64,000 bases of DNA from Halieaceae bacterium (lineage in GTDB: Bacteria > Pseudomonadota > Gammaproteobacteria > Pseudomonadales > Halieaceae), in contig OZ271856.1 of the NCBI GenBank assembly GCA_965601975.1, positions 2,562,240-2,626,239 on the forward strand. The letters run 5' to 3'. The position numbers and the translations under genes are program-made. How positions within the stretch are numbered: the stretch's first letter is position 1; the number at the start of each line of letters is the position of its first letter. Below are positions 1,176 through 16,266 of the stretch, piece by piece. The notes beneath the pieces are model-generated. The model did not search any database and was not told where the DNA came from. It saw nothing but the letters and a program-made list of their open reading frames with translations.

Positions 1176-1612
1176 GCGCCACCCTCTTTCTCGAAGCATT
1201 CGATGTCAGTGATAAAGCCGATACGCTCCTCTGCCCAGCGGGCCTGCACCCGCATACCGGTGGCGATCTCGTCGCGGGCGCAATCGACCGCGTGGACCAT
1301 CGGCACGTCCGCGCCGTCCAGGCGGATCATGGCCCAGGCAAAGGGCCGGTCGAAGGGGTGGCTATCCCGTGGCTCCGTGACCCAGCACCAGGTGACAATC
1401 TCACCGCGGTCCGCCACGTCGACAAATTCCGTCAAGGCGCTGGCGGTCACCGGGTCGAACTCCATGGGCGGCACGTACACCGTGCCGTCATCGCCGCGGG
1501 TGCCGACGATTTTGCCGTCCCGCAGTCCTGTCAGGAAACGCCCGACCACGGGGCCGGTGGAGCGCGTGTAGGTATAGCCAAGTTCGAAAGACTGGCGCAG
1601 AAGTTCAGGCAA
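1172..1612 (-). CDS. DUF35-like OB-fold protein, second tandem copy lacking the Cys4 Zn ribbon
   Basis: 146-aa ORF with non-ATG (TTG) start. Same size and architecture as the neighbouring DUF35 protein but with no CxxC pairs. Translationally coupled. Confidence 0.5.
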   Translation of the reverse strand: MPELLRQSFELGYTYTRSTGPVVGRFLTGLRDGKIVGTRGDDGTVYVPPMEFDPVTASALTEFVDVADRGEIVTWCWVTEPRDSHPFDRPFAWAMIRLDGADVPMVHAVDCARDEIATGMRVQARWAEERIGFITDIECFEKEGGA

Positions 1613-1705
1613 GGAAAAGCCTCCCTGGGGTCCAGGGAGGCAGTATTGACGAGGGTGTGGGGTGACTCAATGGCCGAAAATCCCTATCGGCCATGACATT
1701 TCAGA

Positions 1706-4456
1706 TCAGGCCTCTGCCTCAGCCAGCAGTTTGCCGGCGAAGCGCTTGAGTTTGCCGCCAGCTGTGACACCCTGGAGGTATTCGATCGCCCCGGCATCTT
1801 GCAGGGGCTCCCCGGTAGCGACCGTCAATTCGTACAGCAGCTCGACCAGGCCGCCGATGTCCCGGGGCGGCTCGGCTGGATCGTGCCTGAGCGCGCCCGC
1901 GATTGTGTCACGGACAAAAGCTGCATGCTTTCCTGAAATTTCACTCAGTTCGCCCAGTGACTTCGTCCATCGTCCTACCGGGATAAAGCCCCGCGCCGGG
2001 ATCAGCTGCCCCAGGGCCTTGCACAACTGCTCGACGGCCAGCCGATCCTGTTCAATTGCGGCGATAGCGGCATCGAGCGCTACGGTTTTTACCGCCGGGT
2101 CGCTGCTTCCAATCCCAAGGGCGAGCAGCAGCGCACCCATGTTATCGGGGACAATATGCTGCTGGAGCATGGGTTCGATAAAACCGACATAGGGCGAATT
2201 CGTCAGGATCTGGCTGTGATCGAATACCTCCATGCCCTGAGAGAAAAATGCCTGCGGGTTGAGTGGCCAGACTGTGGCACTCCACCGGACCATATTGACG
2301 TGCAGGCCACAGACACTGCCATAAGCCTTGTCATCCGCCGTGGTCGCATGGAAGGTACTGGTAAGAAAAGTCTCGGGGATCGCGCCGGTCAGCTGCGGCT
2401 CAACCACAATGTTGAGGCGAGAGTAGCGCTCGTTGCCCTTCCACTGCAGCTGGTATGTCGCACCGCTACCGGCATCGGGACAGCCGTGGCCGTGCTTTCT
2501 GGCAATCTCCTCGTGATCGATCCTGGGCAGTCTTGCCGCGGCGGCCGCCACCCACAGCCAGTCTATCGAGCCGACGGGCACATCCGCGCCGAGGGCGAAG
2601 GCCATCGCAGCCTGGTACTCGTCCCTGGGATCGAGAGCCCTGGCCGCCTCTTCTCGCGCATCTGGCGCGAGGCGCAAAAAGGCAAGCACCATATCGGTGG
2701 GTGAAGGCGTGATACCACTGTGCTTGTAACGCATATACCGCGCCACCAGGGTGCCAGCGTCGACGAAGCCCCGACTATCGGTCGGCGCGCTCAACAGTGG
2801 CAGGTCGAGCCCCGCTTCTATGCGAGAGAGCAGTTCCTCGCCACGCCGGGCAAATACGGCTTCAAAAGTCTGGCGAGTATTTTCCTTGAGAGGTGAGTAG
2901 TTGCCCATTCCATAGAGCGGGAATCGAATCTTATGCTCCTCCTCGAGCGGATCATTACCGGCAAAGCGACTGGCAAGGCGAGCGAGCTGGAACTGGAACT
3001 GGTCATCGGGCATGCGCTTTATCAGGGCGACTGAACGTTTCTTCAGCGGACCTATCAGTTCTTCAAAGTCCGGTGGACGTGTCGCGCCCAGCCGAGCCAG
3101 GCCATCCAGCAGCCTCTCCACCTGGAGGGGATCACTGGGGTCTTCAAGCAGGCGCAAAAATTCCTGGTTCAACTCGGTATAGGTAGCGATTGGCTCAATC
3201 ACGGAGACAGACGCTTTGGCGGGCGCGGCAACCGGGGAGACTGGCTCCGCTCGCGCCTCCGTTACACCCACCAGCTCCTCAAAAGTTTTTCTTAGTGATG
3301 GGGCAATACCCTCCGCATACCCCTGCATGGCCGCCCGGGTGTCGGGATCGCGCAGGCCGTCCAGGGATTCGATCAGGGCCAGCGCCTTTTTCTGTACGTC
3401 AGCCGACTCGTGGATCAGCGCATCCACGGCCAGTCGCGCCCCCTGCCCCGACAGATCGGGCTCGCGCTTGACCGCGTTTGTGATCAACCGCAGTCCGGTG
3501 TTGACCGTGCCTTTGGCCCGCGCCTGCAGGACCGGCGGTAAATGCGCCAGCAAGTCGACTGCTGACAGTTTTCCCGCCTTGTCCAATGCCACAACAGCCT
3601 TGAGCGAAAAGGATACTGTGGGCGGAATCGAGCTTCCTAACAGAAGTAGATACCGGTCGGAGCGCGCTGCACGCTCCTCGATTGTCGGCTCCAGCGCCTC
3701 GTGGAAACGGGAAAACCAGCCGGCCCTGAACTGGGCGAAATCACGCGCCAGCGCCTGCAGGCTCTCGTCCAGCAGACGGTCGCGATCCAGGGTGCCATCG
3801 GACGCTAGTTCTAGCATCACAGCCGACCAGGAGTAGCCTTTGCGACCGATGTATTTTTCGTGTGTAGCCAGGCTCAGGTCCCCGCCGCCTTCCACCTCGA
3901 AAAGGCGCCAGATATCTTCATCCCTGATATCCGGGCGCGAACGAATACGGTCGGCGTGCGTCATTCCGCTGTCCCAGAGCGCTGTCGGTGACTGCTTCCA
4001 GTCAGGTAGGCAATCGATCATGCCGAGAATGTATCCATCTCCGGTGGGCTTCTGGCAAAGGTTCGCTTCGTAGAGCAGCCTGACGTCGTTGAAAGCGCGC
4101 GGCGTCTGCTCGACCAGCGACTCCAGCCACTCGTCTACCCAGTCCGGTTTGAGTGCCTTGACCACGTCGAGAATGAAACCGTCCCAGGGCAGCATCCGCC
4201 AACCCAGCTTTATCAATTCGCTGGCAGTTGCCGTGGCAAGAACACACACCTGGATTCGCTCCTCCCGTTCGCGGTAATCATGCGTTGTCCCTTGTGAAAG
4301 CCAGTCCGCATCCAGGTTCTTCAGGAGCTTCATTGCAGCGGGAGCAAGCTCCCTTCGCTCTTTGGCGGACTTGTCCGCAAAAAAGGCGAGGCAGTCCTCC
4401 CTGGGTGATGTGTCGATCAACTGAGCCAGAACGTCCATGTCGTGTCCTGCATTCAT
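1706..4456 (-). CDS. Large (916 aa) alpha-helical protein of the DUF4132/DUF6493 (MolR/YehI-like) class, partner of the SWIM protein
   Basis: Uninterrupted 916-codon ORF at genome-typical GC. Start overlaps the stop of the upstream SWIM gene by 1 nt (TAATG). Family assignment is from recalled domain architecture and is not computed. Confidence 0.65.
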   Translation of the reverse strand: MNAGHDMDVLAQLIDTSPREDCLAFFADKSAKERRELAPAAMKLLKNLDADWLSQGTTHDYREREERIQVCVLATATASELIKLGWRMLPWDGFILDVVKALKPDWVDEWLESLVEQTPRAFNDVRLLYEANLCQKPTGDGYILGMIDCLPDWKQSPTALWDSGMTHADRIRSRPDIRDEDIWRLFEVEGGGDLSLATHEKYIGRKGYSWSAVMLELASDGTLDRDRLLDESLQALARDFAQFRAGWFSRFHEALEPTIEERAARSDRYLLLLGSSIPPTVSFSLKAVVALDKAGKLSAVDLLAHLPPVLQARAKGTVNTGLRLITNAVKREPDLSGQGARLAVDALIHESADVQKKALALIESLDGLRDPDTRAAMQGYAEGIAPSLRKTFEELVGVTEARAEPVSPVAAPAKASVSVIEPIATYTELNQEFLRLLEDPSDPLQVERLLDGLARLGATRPPDFEELIGPLKKRSVALIKRMPDDQFQFQLARLASRFAGNDPLEEEHKIRFPLYGMGNYSPLKENTRQTFEAVFARRGEELLSRIEAGLDLPLLSAPTDSRGFVDAGTLVARYMRYKHSGITPSPTDMVLAFLRLAPDAREEAARALDPRDEYQAAMAFALGADVPVGSIDWLWVAAAAARLPRIDHEEIARKHGHGCPDAGSGATYQLQWKGNERYSRLNIVVEPQLTGAIPETFLTSTFHATTADDKAYGSVCGLHVNMVRWSATVWPLNPQAFFSQGMEVFDHSQILTNSPYVGFIEPMLQQHIVPDNMGALLLALGIGSSDPAVKTVALDAAIAAIEQDRLAVEQLCKALGQLIPARGFIPVGRWTKSLGELSEISGKHAAFVRDTIAGALRHDPAEPPRDIGGLVELLYELTVATGEPLQDAGAIEYLQGVTAGGKLKRFAGKLLAEAEA

Positions 4457-5799
4457 TAGGTTTCTTCGAGCGCCATTTCCGTCGCCAGAACATGCTTACA
4501 GGGCCCACGCGCGCCCTGGTGTTTGGCGTACCAGGGGCAGGTGCAGGTACTGCAGGATTCACCGAGAATGACCCGGTGGGTCACGCCGTCACTCTGCACT
4601 TCCGCTGACACCGAGCTTCCATCGACACGCACTTTCACTGCGCCTTTGCGATACAGCTCTTCCGCGCTCTTCAGCCTGGGGTTCAGCCTTTCAATCAGTG
4701 ATAGATCAAAGGGCAGCGCACGATGGAAGTATGCGCCCGCCTGCAGGTCGAAACCCAGCAAACCCTGGGCCGCAAGCGACGCCAGCGCGTTCTCCACAGC
4801 CTCATGGTTCAGCCCGGTATCCTGTGACAGCTGTTTCGCATCCAGCACGCTCTGCCATTTGAGCTGCGCTTTCAACAGCGCCAACGCGCTGTTATCGGAC
4901 GCACCAACGCTCGAAAGCAGCTGGCCGTCACCGGAAAAGCCGCGCCAGGGTTCCGAGTTCAGCGCCAACAACAGGCTCTGGCCGCCAAAGTCCAACACCC
5001 ATGCACTGCTACCCTGGGCTTCGTTGTACCAGACTGCCAGCGACTCGGCATCGCCTGCCAGCTTCTCCAGCAGGCGCAGCCGCTGGGTACCCCTGATCAT
5101 CACACTGCCCGGGGACTGACGTCCCGACAGGCGGCCGCCCTGGGGCGACGGCGTCACCCATTGCACATGATCCGCTTTCCCGCGCGGCAGAGAACGCAGA
5201 AAGCGCTGTGCCTGCACACGCGACAGTGTAAATCGGGCCGACATCCCCCGCAGATGAGACTGCACTTCGGCAAACCCCTTGATCCACCGCGTGGGCAGCG
5301 GCACTTTTCGCTCGACAACGGATTCGCTGGCCTTGTGTAACTCGACAGACTCCCTGTTCACCTCCAGGCGTAGGGGTGTCGCGGCCCGCACCGTGGCCAG
5401 CGCGGCACGCATGTCGGCCTGGAAATCGACGTTGGTTGTACCCGGGCTGAAGTGTTCGGCGGCAAAGGCCGCTTCGCCCAGGTCATGACGAATGTAGGTA
5501 CTGCAACAGGCGGAGAAGCCTTCGAAGTGAAGCTTGTCGCGGGAGACCGTCGCAACCGGATCGGCTTCCCGCAATATGCGGGCAAGCATGCTGGGAGGCA
5601 CATAGAATCGTGTACCGACCAGGTCGGAAACCGCTCGCAGGCCGCGCGCGGTCGCGAGCGGGTTCAGTAAATCGCCGGCGAAGAACCGGGTTTCCGAGGG
5701 CTCGGTGAGTTCCGCTGCAATCTGCAGCTGGAAGCCGTCACCCGCGGCATTCAGCGCGGATGGACGGGCGTAGCGATAGACATGGTCGATAGCTGCCAT
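4456..5799 (-). CDS. SWIM zinc-finger domain protein (447 aa)
   Basis: C-terminal CxCxnCxH signature (..CSTCTCPWYAKHQGARGPCKHVLA). N-terminal ~380 aa is a typical SWIM-associated region. Coupled to the downstream 916-aa gene. Confidence 0.8.
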   Translation of the reverse strand: MAAIDHVYRYARPSALNAAGDGFQLQIAAELTEPSETRFFAGDLLNPLATARGLRAVSDLVGTRFYVPPSMLARILREADPVATVSRDKLHFEGFSACCSTYIRHDLGEAAFAAEHFSPGTTNVDFQADMRAALATVRAATPLRLEVNRESVELHKASESVVERKVPLPTRWIKGFAEVQSHLRGMSARFTLSRVQAQRFLRSLPRGKADHVQWVTPSPQGGRLSGRQSPGSVMIRGTQRLRLLEKLAGDAESLAVWYNEAQGSSAWVLDFGGQSLLLALNSEPWRGFSGDGQLLSSVGASDNSALALLKAQLKWQSVLDAKQLSQDTGLNHEAVENALASLAAQGLLGFDLQAGAYFHRALPFDLSLIERLNPRLKSAEELYRKGAVKVRVDGSSVSAEVQSDGVTHRVILGESCSTCTCPWYAKHQGARGPCKHVLATEMALEET

Positions 5800-5869
5800 G
5801 CTTTCATTCTAACCATGAAAGCGTGGCAGCCAATCACCTATTTACAGAAACGGACCAAGGCGACTGCAA

Positions 5870-8234: not shown

Positions 8235-9092
8235 TCAGTCGATGGGGCTCGCTTCGCCGGAACCCATAATGCTGCGCTTCACGCGCGGCTCGCCCCGATA
8301 CATCACGTCGCCGCTGCCAAGGATGTTCACGTCGAGGTACTCCACGGCCCAGACCTGGACATCACCGGAGCCGAGAATATCCACCTCGACCTGACGGGCA
8401 GGCAGACTGGACAGATCCACGTCGCCGGAGCCGGCCACGCTGATATCCATCGAATCGACCATGCCGTCCTCACTTTCGCTGGAGCCGACAATATCGCCGG
8501 AACCGGCCACCTCGACGTCCATCCGCTGTGCAGTGATCTTGCCGAGATCGATGTCGCCTGAACCCGCCAGTTCAACGGCCAACTCGTCAACCTCGGAACT
8601 CGCCAGCTGGATGGTCCCGGATCCCGCGACTTCGACCTCCAGTGATTCCGCCTTCACGGAATGCAGGCGCATGCTGCCGGAGCCCTCGACACTGACATAG
8701 AGTTCATCGGTCTCGACCGGGTCCACCCAGATTTCGCCGGAGCCTTCCAGCTCGATATTGTCCAGGTCGGTCACTTCCAGCAGGTACTTCACGTCGCGTA
8801 CGCTGCGGCCGCGCTTGGTGTATCCCAGCTTCAAGGTGTTGCCGCGTACATAGAACGGCTCGCGGTCGAGATCCTCCTCGTCGCCTTTCACCAACAGGCG
8901 GTTGGTGTCACCAAAGGTGACTTTCAACTCGTCACTGCCGCGCAGGATGACCTTGTCGATGTCGAAGCCCTCGACGGCGCGGGTATCTGCGTGTACCACC
9001 GCTGACACACCGGCACAGGCCAGGAAAGCCAGGGCGATAGCGAATCGCCGCTTGCCGCCCGGTGCGAGGAATTGTCTTCGCTGGTTCAACAT
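8235..9092 (-). CDS. DUF2807/GIN-domain (putative adhesin-head beta-helix) secreted protein
   Basis: Signal peptide followed by about nine ~20-aa repeats with an xGSGD/E core (VEGSGSM, VAGSGTI, LAGSGDI, VAGSGDV, ILGSGDV ...). Confidence 0.6.
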   Translation of the reverse strand: MLNQRRQFLAPGGKRRFAIALAFLACAGVSAVVHADTRAVEGFDIDKVILRGSDELKVTFGDTNRLLVKGDEEDLDREPFYVRGNTLKLGYTKRGRSVRDVKYLLEVTDLDNIELEGSGEIWVDPVETDELYVSVEGSGSMRLHSVKAESLEVEVAGSGTIQLASSEVDELAVELAGSGDIDLGKITAQRMDVEVAGSGDIVGSSESEDGMVDSMDISVAGSGDVDLSSLPARQVEVDILGSGDVQVWAVEYLDVNILGSGDVMYRGEPRVKRSIMGSGEASPID

Positions 9093-9606: not shown

Positions 9607-11004
9607 TCAGCGGCGCTTCTTCTTCACGTGTTTCATCATCCGCCGCTTGCGGGCCACCTGGCGCTGGGTGAGTTTGTTGCGCTTGCCGGCATAGGGGTTG
9701 TCCCCGGTGCGGAACTCCACCTTGACCGGCGTACCCTGCAGGTCCAGCGCGCGCCGGTAGATCTTCTCCAGGTAGCGGTGGTAGGACGCCGGCAGCTTGC
9801 CGGTCTGGTTGCCGTGTATGACGATCAGCGGCGGGTTTTGCCCACCCGCATGGGCATAGCGCAGCTTGATGCGCCGCCCGTTGACCATGGGGGGCTCGTG
9901 GTCAGCCACTGCGTCTTCAAGGATGCGCGTCAACTGATTGGTGGAGAGTTTGCGGGTTGCCGCCTCGTAGGCTGCGTCGACGGACTTGTAGAGGTGCCCC
10001 ACTCCGGTCCCGTGCAGCGCTGAGATGAAGTGGATGTCGGCGTAATCGATGAATTTGAGGCGCCGCTCCAGCTCATAGCGAATGCGCTGCTTGTCGTCAG
10101 ATTCCAGCCCGTCCCACTTGTTCAGGGCGATCACCAGGCCGCGCCCCGCGTCGATGGCCTGTCCCAGCAGGTGAAGGTCCTGCTCCACCAGTCCCTCGTG
10201 GGCGTCCATGACCAGGATGACCACGTGGGCGTCGTCGATCGCCCGCAGGGTCTTCACGATGGAAAACTTCTCCACCACTTCTTTCACGTTTTTGCGGCGC
10301 CGCACCCCGGCGGTGTCAATAAGCGTGTACTGGCGGTCGCCGCGGTCGTAGTCGATGTAGATGCTGTCGCGGGTGGTGCCGGGCTGGTCGTAGACCACCA
10401 CTCGCTCCTCACCCAGCAGGCGATTGATCAGGGTGGACTTGCCGACATTGGGGCGGCCGATCACGGCGACGCGAACAGCGCCCTCTCGCCCGGGTGCAGG
10501 TGCCGTGTCTTCAAACTCAAACTCCGACAGCACCGCTTCCAGCATGGGTTTGACGCCGCGCCCGTGTGTGGCGGTAATGGGATACACGTTTTCAAGACCC
10601 AGCGCATAGAACTCGGGGACCACCACGTCCTCGTTGACGCCGTCGACCTTGTTGACCAGCAGGTGGAATGATTTGTTGCTGCGCCGCAGGTGATTGACCA
10701 GTTCCTCGTCGCCGGCCGTCAATCCCGCGCGGGCGTCCACCAGCAGCAGTACCACGTCGGCCTCGTCCACCGCGGCCAGGGACTGCTCCGCCATGTGGGA
10801 GTCGATGCCGGCTTCTTCGCCGGTAATCCCGCCGGTGTCGATGACAATGAAGTGCTGGTCGCCGTAGCGGGCTTCGCCGTACTTGCGATCACGGGTAAGG
10901 CCGGGGAAATCCGCCACCAGCGCATCGCGGCTGCGGGTCAGTCGATTGAACAGGGTCGACTTGCCCACGTTGGGCCGCCCGACCAGGGCGATCACCGGTG
11001 TCAC
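9607..11004 (-). CDS. der: Ribosome-associated GTPase Der (EngA), tandem GTPase domains plus KH-like C-terminus
   Basis: Two G-domains (GRPNVGKST x2, DTGG/DTAG, NKVD/NKWD). Confidence 0.95.
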
Positions 11005-12212
11005 TGGTTTTCCCGGGCGGTGACCCTCAGCGCAGTGAGTTTGCCGCTGTTACCGAGTATGTAGAGCACGTCATCCACCGCCAGCATATTGCCGCGGATC
11101 CCGTCGCCATCCACCTGTATGCGGCCGATGATCCTGCCGTCGACCTGGGACAGGATGTGCACGTAGCCTTCGAAGTCCGCGACGGCGACGTAACCCTTGA
11201 CCACACGCGGGGAGTTGAGACGCCGGTAGGTCAGGTCGCCCTGCTCCCAGCGGATGCCGGAACTGTTGCGGTAAAACGCGATCACCGTGCCGGTTTCCTC
11301 CGCCACGTAGATATTGCCGAAGCCCTGGTCGAGGCCCACGTAGCTGGACACCTCTTCCTGCCGGAGCTTGCGTCCGCTGCTGACGTCGACGGCGGCAAGC
11401 CGCCCCTGGTAGCTCACGGCCCACAGTACCGGCGGCACCAGCAGCATGTCGCCGTCGATATCGACGATGCGATCGATTTCGGAGCGCCCCTGGGCAATAG
11501 CGACCCGGGCTTCCCAGCGCACCGCCCCCGTATTGACGTCCAGGGCCACCACCCGGCCATTGCCGAACGCGGCAATGGCGAAGCGCTCATAAATGATCGG
11601 CGTGCTGGTACCGCGCAGGGTCAGCACCGGCACGTTGCTGTCGTACGCCCAGGCCTGGGATCCGTCTTCGGCATTCAGGCCAAGCAGTTTGCCGTTATAG
11701 CTCTGCACCACTACCATGGTGCCGTTGCTCTGGGGCGCTGACAGGATCTCGCCCTGGAGCTGCGTGCTCCACAGTTCGCTGCCGTCTTCCTGGGACAGTG
11801 CAAGCACCTGGCCGTCACCGGTCCCGAGCAGCAGGCGGCCGCCGCCGATGCCGACGCCGCCGCTGAGCTCACGATCCAGTTCGGTGCGCCAGATGCGCTT
11901 GCCGCTGTCACGTTCCAGCGCCACCACGTCGCCCTCAGCACCGGCGGCATAGATGCGGTTACCATCGATGGCCGGGCGCAGGCGGTAGAAGCCCTCCCCC
12001 TGGCCACCGTCGACGCTGACGCTCCACAGCCGTTTGAAGCGCACTTCCTCGACGATGTCGAGCAGCTCCGCGGGCTGATTGGCCTCATCGTCACTGTCGC
12101 CAAACCAGTCGCCCAGCGTGCTACAGGCCGACAGGAAGGAAATGCCCAGGGCCAGACCGGTGGCCTTGAGAATACGAAGCACGTTATTCCTCCGACGTCG
12201 CTGCCAGCTCAC
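11001..12212 (-). CDS. bamB: Outer-membrane protein assembly factor BamB (PQQ-like beta-propeller lipoprotein)
   Basis: Lipobox LSAC plus repeated propeller blades. Conserved position yfgM-bamB-der. True start may be internal to the track ORF. Confidence 0.85.
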
Positions 12213-12864
12213 GGGCCGGTACCGGCGTCAGGCTTTGCAGCTTCAGGCGCAGCGCCTCGCTGGTACCGATATTGCCCGCCGCAGCCAGTGACACCGCGCG
12301 CTCGTAGGCGGCAATCGCCTTGTCGGTTTCGCCGAGCTGGACGTAGACATCACCCTCGGCTTCCGCGTAGGCGGGCTCATAGGCGCCGGCCTCGGCGGCG
12401 CTCAGTATGCTGAGCGCTTCCTGGGGCTTGTCCTGGGCCGCCTTGACCCGTGCCATGCGAAGCTCAGTCAACAGGCGAATTTCCCGCTCGGGATTCTGCG
12501 TCAGGACCCAGCGCAGCTGTTCCTCTGCAGCGTCGAGCTCGTTGTCGGCAACGGCGATCCGCGCCAGGTGCAGGGCGGCGAACTGGGCGTAGGTCGTGGA
12601 GGGGAATTCCTGCTTGAGCCTTTCCGCCAGGGTTTTTGCGGTGACCGCATCATCGGTCCCTGTGCTGACGCGCACGGCTTCCAGCAGTTCCTCGTAACGC
12701 ACGGAAGCGTTTTCCGCCTGCTCCACCTTGCGGTCCTGCCACTCATTCCAGCCAAAGGCCGCCAGCACGGCGAAGCCGACGGCGGCAAGCGTCGAACGCC
12801 CGTTATCGTCCCACCATTTCTTGAGCGCTTCGACCTGCTCTTCTTCAGTGCGATAGGTTTCCAC
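12184..12864 (-). CDS. yfgM: YfgM-like TPR membrane protein (ancillary SecYEG/chaperone factor)
   Basis: N-terminal TM plus TPR-like C-terminus. Conserved location between hisS and bamB. Confidence 0.75.
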   Translation of the reverse strand: METYRTEEEQVEALKKWWDDNGRSTLAAVGFAVLAAFGWNEWQDRKVEQAENASVRYEELLEAVRVSTGTDDAVTAKTLAERLKQEFPSTTYAQFAALHLARIAVADNELDAAEEQLRWVLTQNPEREIRLLTELRMARVKAAQDKPQEALSILSAAEAGAYEPAYAEAEGDVYVQLGETDKAIAAYERAVSLAAAGNIGTSEALRLKLQSLTPVPARELAATSEE

Positions 12865-14147
12865 TACTGTTCCTCGTTCTCGAAATATTGCTTCAGCGCC
12901 GCGGCGAGCGACTCGCGCGACACAGTGCGCTGTTCTCCGTCACCGCGCAGGGGCTTGATCCCCACGGTGCCGTCCGTCAGTTCCTGTTCACCGAGCAGCA
13001 GCGCCAGGCTGGCGCCGCTGCGGTCGGCCTTCTTCATCTGGCTCTTGAAGCTGCCGCCGCCGGTATGCACCTGCAGGCGGCAGCCTGGCAGTGCATCGCG
13101 AATCTGCTCTCCCAGCGCGAGCCCCGCAGGCTGGGCACCCTCGCCCACCGCTACCAGGTAGACCGAGGCCGCCGCCGGTGCCGCCGGGGCGGAACCGATT
13201 TCCTGCAATAGCAGTACCAGTCGCTCCAGTCCCATGGCAAAGCCTGCCGCGGGCGTCGATTTGCCACCGAGCTGCTCCACCAGGCCATCGTAGCGGCCGC
13301 CCGCGCACACGGTGCCCTGGGCGCCGAGTGCATCCGTCACCCACTCGAATACGGTGCGGTTGTAGTAATCCAGCCCGCGCACCAGCCTGGCATTCAGGCG
13401 ATAGCGAATACCCGCCGCATCCAGCATGGCGGTCAGCTGCGCGAAGTGATCGCGGGACTCGTCGTCCAGGAACTCCGGCAGGCTGGGCGCGTCTTCCAGC
13501 AGGGCCTGGGTGTCCGGGTTCTTGCTGTCGAGAATACGCAGCGGGTTTGAGTCCAGCCGGCGCTGGCTGTCCTCGTCGAGCTGGTCTGCGCGCGCCGCCA
13601 GGTAGTCCACCAGGGCAGCCCGGTAGTCGGCCCGCGCTGCATTGCTGCCGAGACTGTTGAGTTCCAGCGTCACCGCATCTGCGATACCCAGCTCGCGCCA
13701 GAGCCTGGCGGACAGGGCGATAAGTTCCGCCTCCACGTCGGCGGTGTCGGTGCCCAGCACCTCGACACCCACCTGGTGAAACTGTCGCTGGCGGCCTTTC
13801 TGGGGTCGCTCGTAGCGGAACATGGGGCCCGCATACCAGAGTTTCTGCTGGGCGCCGAGCAGCCCATTCTGGATAGCGGCCCGCACACAGCCGGCGGTGC
13901 CCTCGGGGCGCAGGGTCAGGCTGTCGCCGTTGCGGTCGGCGAAGCTGTACATTTCGCGTTCGACGATATCGGTCACTTCACCGATGGCGCGCGCGAACAA
14001 GGGAGTCTGCTCGACCACGGGCAGGCGAATCTCCCGGTAGCCATAGCCGTCGAGCAGGTCGGCGACGATGCGTTCCAGGTGCTGCCACAAGTAGCTGTCC
14101 TGCGGGAGAATGTCATTCATTCCCCTGATTGCGCGTATCGGGTTCAC
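12864..14147 (-). CDS. hisS: Histidine--tRNA ligase
   Basis: Class II aaRS motifs with HisRS-specific sequence ([18 protein letters not shown]..). Confidence 0.95.
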
Positions 14148-14167
14148 GTGGGCTTCTCGGGTGTTCT

Positions 14168-15313
14168 CTAGGCTTTGGCGATCAAGTCGCCTGAGTCGTC
14201 TTCGACCGGCAGCGGTTCGCCGCTGCGACTGGCTTCCAGCTCTGCAGCTTTTTTGCGAATGACCTGCTCGAGGTGGTCAATGAAATCCTGGTTGCTGACC
14301 TTGTGGTCCGGCTCGCCCCCGATATAGATCAGGTTGCTGGGCGTCGCGCCGGTCAGGCCGACATCCGCCTCGCGGGCTTCGCCGGGGCCGTTGACGATGC
14401 AGCCGATGACCGCAACGTCCATCGGTGTCCTGATGTCCTCGAGCCGCTGCTCGAGGCTGTTCATGGTCTTGATGACATCAAAGTTCTGCCGGGAGCAGCT
14501 CGGGCAGGCAATGAAATTGATGCCATTGGTGCGCAGCTTGAGGCTCTTGAGAATCTCGAAGCCGACCTTTACCTCTTCCACCGGGTCCGCCGCCAGGGAA
14601 ATGCGGATGGTGTCGCCGATGCCTTCCATCAGCAGCATGCCGAGGCCCACCGCAGACTTGACGGTGCCGCCGCGCAGGCCGCCCGCCTCGGTGATCCCCA
14701 GGTGCAGCGGCTGTTCGATCTGTTTAGCCAGCAGCCGGTAGGCCTCGACCGCCATGAACACCTCGGAGGCCTTCACGCTGACCTTGAATTCCGGGTAGTC
14801 GAGCTTGTCGAGGAAGTCGACATTGCGCATGGCGGACTCCACCAGCGCCTCTGCGTTGGGCTCACCGTACTTGCGCTGCAGGTCCTTGCCCAGGGAGCCG
14901 GCATTGACGCCGATGCGAATGGGAATGCCCTTGTCGCGGCAGCTGTCGACGACCGCTCGAACCCGCTCTTCGCGGCCGATATTACCGGGATTGATGCGCA
15001 GGCAGTCCACCCCGTACTCGGCGACCTTGAGCGCGATCTTGTAGTCGAAGTGGATGTCGGCCACCAGCGGAACGTCTACCTGGCGACGAATTTCCCGGAA
15101 TGCCTCGGCGGCATCCATACTCGGCACGGATACGCGGACAATGTCAGCGCCTGCGCCCTGGATAGCCTGGACCTGGGCGACCGTGGCATCGACGTCGCAG
15201 GTCTCCGTATTGGTCATGCTCTGCACGCTGATGGGCGCATCGCCGCCGACGGCGACGTTGCCGACGTGAATCTGGCGCGATTTGCGGCGCTTGATCGGCG
15301 ACTCGGTGTTCAT
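14168..15313 (-). CDS. ispG: 4-hydroxy-3-methylbut-2-enyl diphosphate synthase (IspG/GcpE)
   Basis: Full-length match to GcpE, including the CPSCSR Fe-S cysteines. Confidence 0.95.
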
Positions 15314-16266
15314 GGCTCACCTACGGTAAATCTGGCGGTGTCCCGCCCCGGTCGAGTGCGTACCGGAAACGGCTCACCGAGATAGGTCAATGTCACGGCA
15401 GCGGCATCGCCAGCGAGAATCTCGAATGGCGGCGTGCCGTCCAGGCGCAGGATATCACCGGCGCCGCGCAGGTCAGCATAGATCAACTGGCCGTCGCCGT
15501 CGCGTACTTCCAACCAGCAATCGGCGCTGAAGCTGAACTCCAGGGCGGCGTCCTGCGGGCCTGTGTCCGAAGGCTCGGACGCCGCGGCAACGGGTTCCGG
15601 GGTCTCGATTGCTTCAGGTTCGGCTGCGGCGAGGCCGCTGTCGAGCGCGGCGACGGTGCTGTCTCCCCGGGTGACTTCGGGAAGGGATTCCGGCAGCGAG
15701 TCGGCCGCGCCGGCGTCCACAGCAAGCGAACTCTCGATCACCGGGCTGTCTGCTGCCGCGGCCGGAAGCGGTGCGTCTTCTGCGACGGCGCCCGTTACGG
15801 CCTCTGCGACTGCCTCTGCTGCCGGCTCCGGCGCAGAAGCGGCAGTGTCTGCAACCTCGGCCGTGCCTTTGTCCCGGTTGCCCGAGATCAACGCAATCGC
15901 GACCACCGCGAACAGCACAAGGCCAAACACCCAGCGGCCCGCATTCTGCCCCGGCGTAGCCGCCGCGGTCGTCGCCCCGGCATCGTCCGGGGTTTCTGCG
16001 TGTTCAGGTTCCAGCGCGCCATACAGCGCGACCATTTCGTCTTCGTCCAGTCCGAGAGTGCGGGCATAGGCGCGAAGGTAGCCGCGTACGAAGGCGGCGC
16101 CGCGCAGGCTGTCGAAGCGGTTTTCCTCCACTGCCTGGATGTGCGCCGGCAGCCAGTTGAGCCGGTCGGCCATTTCACGGGGGGAGATGCCGGCCGCTTC
16201 GCGGGCGTTCCTCAGTCGCTCCCCGGGTGTCTGGAGCTGCTCGCCGGTAAGCTCAGAGCTCTCCAT
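15310..16266 (-). CDS. rodZ: Cytoskeleton protein RodZ (HTH-XRE N-terminus, TM, Ala/Pro/Glu-rich linker, C-terminal domain)
   Basis: N-terminal HTH ([19 protein letters not shown]), single TM, low-complexity linker. Conserved position between pilW and ispG. Confidence 0.8.

Follow-up and report, generated by a model that had tools for sequence, protein, structure and literature searches.

What kind of system is encoded by two adjoining minus-strand genes of a Halieaceae bacterium, one for a zinc-finger protein and the other for a large helical-repeat partner, and what might the two products do together? A first-pass annotation had proposed the pair as a conserved but undescribed system. The window analyzed here is a 64,000-nt stretch of contig OZ271856.1 (GenBank assembly GCA_965601975.1, positions 2,562,240 to 2,626,239), in which the pair is present in one copy.

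Organization of the gene pair

Gene A (4456..5799, minus strand; stop codon 4456-4458) encodes a protein of 447 aa according to the ORF list and its translation, and gene B (1706..4456, minus strand) encodes a protein of 916 aa. As had been annotated, the two open reading frames share one nucleotide: in the junction sequence ...ACC TAA TG AAT..., the last A of the gene A stop codon (4456) is also the A of the gene B ATG, which gives a TAATG stop/start overlap at 4454..4458 (minus strand). This overlap is one of two options, because Met7 of gene B, at which the publicly annotated product begins (P0121; 910 aa; ATG at 4438-4436), has an AGGA sequence 6 nt upstream. Use of Met7 as the start would leave a 17-nt gap. 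The genes are tightly coupled under either of the possible gene B starts.

The pair looks like a self-contained unit, in agreement with the first reading of the locus. It is flanked by intergenic spaces of 70 nt (5800-5869) and 93 nt (1613-1705), and its neighbors are unrelated to it: a GntR/ABC/ABC-2 operon borders it on one flank, and ChsH2-type OB-fold genes border it on the other. In a consensus scan, a promoter-like site (TTGGCT-16-TAGAAT; 5806..5833, minus strand) ends 7 nt before the gene A ATG, which is weak evidence by itself because the one match found is what chance would give (0.9 expected). A terminator-like hairpin with a T-run (10 bp, 8 G-C; about 1609..1641, minus strand), detected likewise by consensus scan 65 nt past the gene B stop codon, fills the second intergenic space. 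The GC content of the pair is not unusual.

Domains and predicted folds of the two proteins

The N-terminal region of gene A protein (aa 1-292; 4924..5799, minus strand) is predicted to adopt the fold of a sliding clamp, with two PCNA-like domains and an extra N-terminal beta3-alpha unit. The AF2 model of the protein (pLDDT 86.4, pTM 0.78) is confident in this region, its fold matches in Foldseek are clamps, and the tandem clamp domains typical of a protomer of DNA sliding clamps are present in the predicted structure. Sliding-clamp Pfam families (PCNA_N/PCNA_C and DNA_pol3_beta) did not match gene A protein at E<=1, and hhalign comparison of the gene A profile with a manually entered human PCNA sequence gave a probability of 0.14%. 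Because the sequence profiles have no similarity to PCNA, the relation to clamps is one of predicted structure.

DNA-facing helices of sliding clamps carry Arg/Lys. In gene A protein, the mean net charge of the clamp region is +4.8, and each predicted helix there bears conserved Arg/Lys; Lys/Arg is kept in 67-100% at R74/R77, R131, R171/K174, R199/R202, and R240/R242, and the face of the clamp that these residues would occupy was deduced from the topology. The invariant polar residues of the region are D80, E93, S96, C98, R104, D106, N123, D125, and E163. The acidic/Cys cluster among them (D80, E93, C98, D106, D125, and E163) is odd for a passive clamp and may instead serve catalysis or ligand binding. 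Sliding clamps and processivity factors (PCNA, 9-1-1, bacterial beta, and UL42/UL44) lack this cluster and have no sequence similarity to gene A protein, which in addition differs from them in its N-terminal unit, in its fused winged helix and SWIM finger, and in lacking linkage to any polymerase or clamp loader.

The winged-helix domain (aa 293-365; 4705..4923, minus strand), which is followed by an invariant FHRxLPF motif, is net acidic, and its helices carry no conserved basic residues; because of this acidity, it is probably not a DNA reader. Linker helices and a SWIM zinc finger complete the protein (aa 366-447; 4459..4704, minus strand). The finger matches Pfam PF04434 at aa 408-442 (nt 4474-4578; E 5e-6), and its CxCxnCxH signature is directly legible at the C-terminus as C419-x-C421-x12-C434-x-H436 (CxCx12CxH) within a beta-beta-beta-alpha finger, as the first-pass annotation had stated. 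The accompanying analogy with MuDR and FAR1 holds for the 40-residue finger, as MuDR/FAR1/MULE transposases also carry a C-terminal CxCxnCxH finger; the rest of gene A protein is unlike them, with the clamp fold and winged helix ahead of the finger instead of DDE/RNase H, and with no element ends. More than 5,400 homologues of gene A protein are all named merely 'SWIM zinc finger family protein', and a PDB sequence search with the pair returned noise only.

Gene B protein is a generic, all-alpha HEAT/ARM-like solenoid. It contains DUF6493 at aa 10-315 (nt 3512-4429; 5e-28, 98.5 bits vs. a cutoff of 25), DUF7824 at aa 441-646 (nt 2519-3136; 6e-17, 62.6 bits vs. 27.5), and DUF7825 at aa 679-910 (nt 1727-2422; 3e-18, 67.0 bits vs. 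27.4), all above the Pfam gathering scores. Of the two classes first suggested for this protein, DUF6493 is thus borne out, whereas DUF4132/MolR/YehI is not: PF13569 has no match at E<=1, and hhalign with E. coli YehI gives a probability of 0.05%. The E. coli yeh cluster resembles the pair in that a SWIM protein (YehQ) and very large helical proteins (YehI and MolR/YehH, of DUF4132) occupy one chromosomal region. However, profile similarity was found neither between gene A protein and YehQ nor between gene B protein and YehI or YehM, and the MoxR ATPase and VWA protein of that cluster are missing at the pair. In eukaryotic ZSWIM8, a finger and a solenoid are parts of a single polypeptide serving as a cullin-RING substrate receptor. 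The pair differs from ZSWIM4-8 (e.g., ZSWIM8, PDB 9rwz) in having two proteins, no ubiquitin machinery, and a clamp domain.

Relation to type XIII retrons and conservation of the pairing

The first retrons to be discovered (Mx162) belong to type XIII. Examples of this type are Mx162, Mx65, Ne144, and Sa163, and the corresponding PADLOC models are SWIM_XIII, WGR_XIII / HEAT-ARM_XIII, and RT_XIII. The family of the SWIM accessory protein has been listed since 2020 with the pattern Dx7[D]x4Ex30-32Dx37E (DEDE), and a transposase origin was suggested for it (Mestre et al., 2020; PMC7736814). Type XIII is largely vertically inherited (Mestre et al., 2020), and according to a SPIRE survey preprint, it is among the more abundant retron types and taxonomically the broadest.

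Gene A protein matches PADLOC SWIM_XIII at 1.7e-61 with 206 bits, compared with 591 bits for a genuine retron member, and aligns with the SWIM protein of the C. butyricum type XIII retron over aa 7-362 (hhalign 98.3%, E 2e-14). Its invariant residues D80-[D88]-E93-D125-E163 fit the published DEDE pattern, and a winged helix and a CxCx12CxH finger follow, as in the retron accessory protein. The module is therefore not wholly undescribed, contrary to the initial proposal, since its SWIM family was already known; what is new is a clade without RT and with a different solenoid partner.

A phmmer search of six-frame translations with C. butyricum RT_XIII, a query that recovers the Methylobacterium retron RT at 9e-72, found no RT_XIII, the retron RT of clade 10, in the 64-kb window and none in the 80 related loci (±10 kb). 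RT families are also absent from the 25 most frequent Pfam / PADLOC families of the neighbors, a census that a single RT match could escape. The two flanking intergenic spaces have no room for an msr-msd, and Rfam, which may be without a type XIII model, reports one tRNA only over the 64 kb. Gene B protein has no match at E<=1 in PADLOC, including WGR_XIII / HEAT-ARM_XIII, and hhalign with the partner proteins of the C. butyricum and Methylobacterium retrons gives probabilities below 1%.

The pair is thus an RT-free relative of the type XIII retron accessory genes. Common to both are the homology of the SWIM protein over the clamp-like and winged-helix regions, the CxCx12CxH finger, and the pairing and co-transcription of the SWIM protein with a helical-repeat protein of ~900-1100 aa. 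In contrast, the RT and msr-msd belong to the retrons, and their solenoids share only the general fold class with the DUF6493/7824/7825 partner. The gene order in retrons is solenoid-SWIM-RT (WGR-HEAT, SWIM, RT in the Methylobacterium system, a second genuine type XIII retron) and at the pair SWIM-solenoid, and in the retron SWIM protein, ~100 aa are inserted behind the N-terminal unit.

The pairing of A and B is not a chance one, but a widely conserved two-gene operon, as the first-pass annotation had supposed. Of the 80 related loci, 78 have a gene B homologue directly beside the SWIM gene and in the same orientation. The 80 loci span at least six phyla: Pseudomonadota (alpha, beta, and gamma), Planctomycetota, Melainabacteria, Myxococcota, Acidobacteriota, and Hydrogenedentota. 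Annotations of Streptomyces and Bacteroidota show this pair too. Both partnerless loci are short MAG contigs: in one (L033), an integrase follows the SWIM gene, and in the other (L053), a downstream ORF of 968 aa, without matches to Pfam, PADLOC, or the profiles, resembles an out-of-frame artefact. Coupled junctions support co-expression: in 33 of 77 loci, the partner's start overlaps the SWIM stop codon by 4 nt in frame (ATGA/GTGA/TTGA), and the other junctions comprise ~20 overlaps of 1-29 nt, 21 gaps of 2-36 nt, and 3 ambiguous cases. Distance matrices of A and B correlate with r = 0.80 (maximum of 0.08 in 500 permutations), and one apparent A-B fusion was found (P0376). Mean identity is 45% for A vs. 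28% for B, which evolves about twice as fast, and two or three tandem B paralogues are present in some loci of Planctomycetota and Hydrogenedentota. There is no conserved third gene; the 139 flanking ORFs contain 149 Pfam families, each present in at most 4 of them.

Relatives are present in at least 593 of about 185,000 species, i.e., well under 1%. A search with the clamp region at E<=1e-30 yields about 243 clusters (50% identity), which we infer to belong to the RT-less clade. Synteny around the pair is kept within Ruegeria, and relatives at 67-69% identity have the cassette in unrelated neighborhoods. On a 74-kb Chondrinema plasmid, a single example, the pair has rep genes on one side and parA on the other.

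Possible roles of the pair

No biochemical function of the pairing was found in the literature, in line with the initial statement. No paper mentioning DUF6493 was retrieved; searches on WHSWIM, on SWIM with PCNA-like and winged-helix domains, and on retron XIII with clamp or PCNA gave nothing relevant; no experiment on the pair or on accessory proteins of type XIII retrons came to light; and no reported function was found for type XIII retrons or for those proteins.

The explanation that we prefer, at roughly even chances, is that A and B form an obligate two-subunit nucleic-acid-binding complex, an RT-free sister of the type XIII retron accessory module. It builds on homology, fold, obligate co-occurrence with coupling, and the absence of an RT and of a transposase fold; DNA binding, docking surfaces, and the division of labor are what we infer. 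Subunit A would be the nucleic-acid-binding protein, composed of the PCNA-like double clamp domain, the acidic winged helix, and the SWIM finger, and its clamp-like face would hold DNA or a DNA/RNA structure. A might dock onto B through its SWIM finger, its winged helix, and its invariant loops VPLPxRW, EPWRGFSGDG, and FHRxLPF. B would be a variable recognition or scaffold subunit, coupling nucleic-acid holding by A to a protein target. As for the role of such a complex, surveillance of foreign or aberrant DNA is weakly favored over housekeeping. Genomic context lends this role no support: defence or mobile genes are not found nearby, and phage and viral collections do not contain the pair.

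A stand-alone anti-phage or anti-plasmid system is conceivable but unlikely; in it, A would be the effector, with the D/E/C cluster as a metal-dependent nuclease site, and B would sense the invader. It would agree with the homology of A to a component of retrons, a generally defensive class listed in PADLOC, with the patchy distribution, the unrelated neighborhoods of close relatives, and the rapid divergence and tandem expansion of B, and with the correspondence of the invariant acidic residues to the DEDE motif (Mestre et al., 2020). However, the defence-island context raised by the first-pass annotation is not seen: the nearest genes on each side (139 ORFs, raw counts) show no enrichment in defence or mobile genes, their PADLOC matches being generic kinases and ABC ATPases (2-4 neighbors each), the ±10 kb surroundings contain ordinary metabolism genes, and no relative occurs on viral contigs or in phage records. 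The strong conservation of A between phyla (39-70% identity) is likewise not what defence genes usually show, and type XIII itself is largely vertical in descent. To our knowledge, no nuclease has a clamp fold. Accessory genome maintenance appears less likely still. Here, A would act as an alternative DNA platform, clamp-like but non-replicative and similar in principle to 9-1-1 or herpesvirus UL42, from which the HEAT subunit recruits partners for repair, replication restart, or plasmid/chromosome maintenance. The conserved basic helices, the chromosomal location with normal GC content and promoter-like and terminator-like sites of its own, the Ruegeria synteny, and the Chondrinema plasmid all fit this role, but the plasmid is one case, no repair or replication gene is consistently linked, and the pair is not a core function because so few species carry it.

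It is quite improbable that the pair is a transcription regulator or signal sensor in which the winged helix of A binds an operator and B senses a ligand or protein: the acidic winged helix lacks conserved basic residues in its helices, no conserved target gene adjoins the pair, and the clamp domain, which exceeds the other parts in both size and conservation, would be left unexplained. A domesticated or active Mutator/IS256-type transposase, suggested by the DEDE motif together with a C-terminal SWIM finger like that of MuDR, and implicit in the MuDR analogy of the first-pass annotation, is largely refuted and has hardly any likelihood. The motif-bearing region folds as a clamp in the model, RNase H-like transposases are absent among the listed fold matches, Pfam gives no transposase match, and the 64 kb contain a single copy. 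The mobile-element reading in general is rejected because the pair is not framed by terminal repeats, whether inverted or direct.

Beyond the preferred two-subunit complex, a wider reading is tentative and rather doubtful as a whole: the clamp-fold/winged-helix/SWIM protein might found a new class of bacterial DNA clamps that are non-replicative, and together with interchangeable solenoids it would be an autonomous sensor of certain DNA or DNA-RNA structures. Under the same reading, type XIII retrons would be a special case that couples a pre-existing sensor to an RT making its ligand (msDNA); the RT-less form would be the more common and perhaps the ancestral one and would read cellular or invader-derived nucleic acid directly; and catalysis or ligand sensing would fall to the invariant acidic/Cys pocket.

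For the SWIM family, the predicted clamp fold corrects the published interpretation of the protein as transposase-derived and offers a testable idea for how msDNA may be read, namely on a clamp-like surface that holds it. The SWIM module has a large RT-free clade; the module therefore works without a retron, and it is open to study alone in hosts that are easy to work with, among them Ruegeria, Variovorax, Acidovorax, and Streptomyces.

The gene pair in the window

The pair consists of gene A (4456..5799, minus strand), which encodes a 447-aa SWIM protein, and gene B (1706..4456, minus strand), which encodes a 916-aa partner. The ORF list and translation bear out both reading frames proposed in the first-pass annotation, and the sequence contains the single-nucleotide overlap described there (TAATG), position 4456 being both the last base of the A stop codon and the first base of the B start codon. 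The start of B is uncertain (1-nt overlap or 17-nt gap; candidate starts within 4436-4456, minus strand), because the public annotation of B (P0121, 910 aa) begins at Met7, which an AGGA precedes by 6 nt. In front of A, TTGGCT-16-TAGAAT (5833-5806, minus strand) resembles a promoter and ends 7 nt 5′ of the A ATG, although one match against 0.9 expected makes the match alone no better than chance. The A mRNA might be leaderless, as the -10-like hexamer leaves just 7 nt to the start codon and a clear Shine-Dalgarno sequence is lacking. A terminator-like hairpin (10 bp, G+C-rich, followed by a T-run; 1641-1619, minus strand) lies 3′ of B.

The C-terminal SWIM finger ascribed to A is recovered by Pfam at aa 408-442 and is the only Pfam domain in this protein. 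B had been placed in the DUF4132 or DUF6493 class; Pfam finds DUF6493, DUF7824 and DUF7825 in B but not DUF4132, and the DUF4132/MolR/YehI comparison also fails against the E. coli proteins. A putative groove of B carries a conserved DFAQFRAGWFSRFHE. Searches of both proteins against NCBIfam gave nothing useful. In PADLOC, A matches SWIM_XIII, the model for the SWIM accessory protein of type XIII retrons (1.7e-61), and B has no match.

The flanking genes are unrelated to the pair: a GntR/ABC ATPase/ABC-2 permease operon upstream, and two ChsH2-type zinc-ribbon/OB-fold genes downstream. GC content is even throughout the region, and no repeats bracketing the pair were found. Further upstream, 9607-16266 (minus strand) holds a core housekeeping cluster (der, BamB-like, YfgM-like, hisS, ispG and rodZ, named from reading translations only), and the pair therefore lies in an ordinary chromosomal region. 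Also, the gene at 8235-9092 (minus strand) encodes a DUF2807 (putative adhesin head GIN domain) protein; a 25-nt unit that is present four times within 8422-8758 encodes repeated GSGD-type motifs, and its irregular spacings of 60-180 nt establish no 60-nt periodicity.

Conservation of the pairing across genomes

At 90% identity, homologues of A fall into more than 5,400 clusters, all carrying the sole name 'SWIM zinc finger family protein', and when a single genome was scanned for each species, at least 593 species had a relative. The SWIM_XIII superfamily as a whole comprises about 940 representatives. Eighty loci were fetched from alpha-, beta- and gamma-Pseudomonadota, Planctomycetota, Melainabacteria, Myxococcota, Acidobacteriota and Hydrogenedentota. 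Of these, 78 have a B homologue next to A in the same orientation, directly downstream in 77 and only upstream in one (L062), so the adjacency reported in the first-pass annotation is not due to chance. Annotated pairs also occur in Streptomyces and on one Bacteroidota plasmid. A 4-nt stop/start overlap (NTGA) is available in 33 of the 77 downstream junctions; in about 20 others the overlap is 1-29 nt, 21 leave a gap of 2-36 nt, and 3 junctions are unclear. The pairwise distances of the two proteins are correlated (r = 0.80; permutations reached 0.08 at most), and mean identity is higher in A (45%) than in B (28%). All-against-all ORF clustering of the 80 loci yielded no third conserved gene, and relatives at 67-69% identity keep the pair intact in quite different neighbourhoods. 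Because of this adjacency, the junctions, the distance correlation, the varied neighbourhoods and the lack of a third gene, A and B are regarded as an obligate, tightly coupled two-gene cassette, mobile as a unit.

A defence-island context, one of those proposed for checking, is not seen. The 139 nearest flanking ORFs contain 149 Pfam families, none occurring in more than 4, their PADLOC matches are generic kinases and ABC-like ATPases, and no defence or mobile surroundings are seen among them.

Several Planctomycetota and Hydrogenedentota loci carry two or three tandem B copies behind one A. A Planctomycetota MAG has one SWIM gene followed by three tandem DUF6493 paralogues (L068:3524-12978), L047 and L070 have two DUF6493 copies each, and L046 has one copy on either side of the SWIM gene. 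The database protein P0376 (832 aa) is an apparent A–B fusion, with a clamp-like region at aa 8-295 and a DUF6493 match at aa 549-757; it could be genuine or result from a frameshift where the genes overlap. In a Myxococcales MAG (L033:2339-5448), the SWIM gene has a phage-integrase-family gene after it instead of a DUF6493 partner. On the 74-kb plasmid of Chondrinema litorale (L086:3884-11592), two replication-initiation genes flank the pair on one side and parA on the other, a lone example that hints at a tie to replicon maintenance. On a plasmid of Streptomyces sp. NBC_01278 (L085:1-11150), a SLATT-domain gene lies two genes downstream of the pair and a ribosome-inactivating-family gene at the locus edge, the only conflict-type context seen. 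Caulobacter CCNA_03482, which bears the same annotation name as the A homologues ('SWIM zinc finger family protein'), is represented by a mutant among the matches of a crystal-violet biofilm screen (PMC13001252).

Predicted structure and conserved residues of the SWIM protein

An AlphaFold model of A built with 73 sequences scores 86.4 in pLDDT and 0.78 in pTM, and is mostly above 90 in pLDDT over residues 80-280. The top 50 Foldseek matches are all PCNA or beta clamps, and an RNase H-like transposase occurs in neither fold-match list. The model and fold matches therefore give a predicted three-part architecture: aa 1-292 form a double domain of PCNA type, enlarged by an N-terminal beta3-alpha unit; aa 293-365 form a winged helix; and aa 366-447 hold a linker and the SWIM finger. 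The clamp relation is undetected by sequence methods (Pfam, PDB by sequence, profile against human PCNA), and a literature search found no paper mentioning it. A SWIM protein predicted to be built on a sliding-clamp fold, rather than a transposase fold, is new.

Among 218 family members (32-100% identity), residues conserved at ≥97% are D80, P81, T84, R91, E93, S96, C98, R104, D106, G120, N123, D125, E163, V166, L168, P169, R171, W172, R240, the loop R286-G-F-S-G290-x-G292, G346, G349, D351, R360, P363, R375 and the four zinc ligands. The published 'DEDE' motif corresponds to D80-[D88]-E93-D125-E163 and sits inside the predicted clamp fold. By secondary-structure order, V166-L168-P169 would occupy the position of the PCNA interdomain connector loop. 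Neither A nor B has a recognisable enzymatic domain. The invariant acidic/Cys cluster could be a catalytic site, a ligand site or the A–B interface.

Conserved Lys/Arg residues occur on every predicted helix of the clamp region (R74/R77, R131, R171/K174, R199/R202, R240/R242). Net charge averages +4.8 for this region and -3.1 for the winged helix, which has no conserved basic residue. The clamp-like module of A would bind nucleic acid through its helical, Arg-carrying face, and A might dock to B via its SWIM finger, acidic winged helix and invariant loops. B, fast-evolving and sometimes duplicated, would be the recognition or scaffold subunit.

Relation to type XIII retrons and possible role

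The SWIM_XIII protein of type XIII retrons combines a winged helix with a DEDE motif, ends in a CxCx12CxH SWIM finger, and is usually preceded by a HEAT/ARM-repeat protein (Mestre et al., 2020; PMC7736814). Searching a plasmid collection with tblastn gave two distant matches that are genuine type XIII retrons. The Clostridium butyricum retron comprises, in order, a 978-aa WGR_XIII protein (2e-18), a 602-aa SWIM_XIII protein (5e-178) and an RT matching RT_XIII (7e-160); that of Methylobacterium bullatum comprises a 1080-aa WGR_XIII protein (1.5e-251), the SWIM protein and an RT (RT_XIII, 7e-176). The profile of A aligns with the clostridial SWIM protein at 98.3% probability across aa 7-362, showing homology. 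The partners in both retrons have no Pfam family and no similarity to B. With the clostridial RT as query, neither the 64-kb window nor a single one of the 80 loci yielded an RT; this query works, because it recovers the Methylobacterium RT at 9e-72.

Because A is homologous to SWIM_XIII and no RT was found, the pair in the window is related to the accessory pair of retron XIII but lacks an RT. In both systems the SWIM protein is paired with a solenoid, whereas the retrons have an RT, a solenoid different from the DUF6493 protein B, and the opposite gene order. The idea of an undescribed system thus holds in part: SWIM and helical-repeat pairing has been catalogued since 2020, only within type XIII retrons and without a function, but the RT-free clade with a DUF6493 partner is new. 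A solo family member on a Streptomyces cadmiisoli plasmid (L083:6764-8266; 29% identity, SWIM_XIII 6e-30) has neither a solenoid partner nor an RT alongside.

Surveillance of foreign or aberrant DNA is only weakly favoured, by retron kinship, patchy distribution, the nomadic cassette and partner expansions; the absence of defence or mobile context, absence from phages and strong conservation of A argue against it. Rival readings are a nuclease-type defence system, an accessory genome-maintenance clamp and a regulator. A possible transposase origin was proposed for the type XIII SWIM protein, with no function given (Mestre et al., 2020; PMC7736814), but A as a domesticated transposase is essentially refuted, as its fold matches are of the predicted clamp type and no element ends bracket the pair.

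The pair is of interest because, through this RT-free form, the function of the type XIII retron accessory proteins becomes approachable without the retron.
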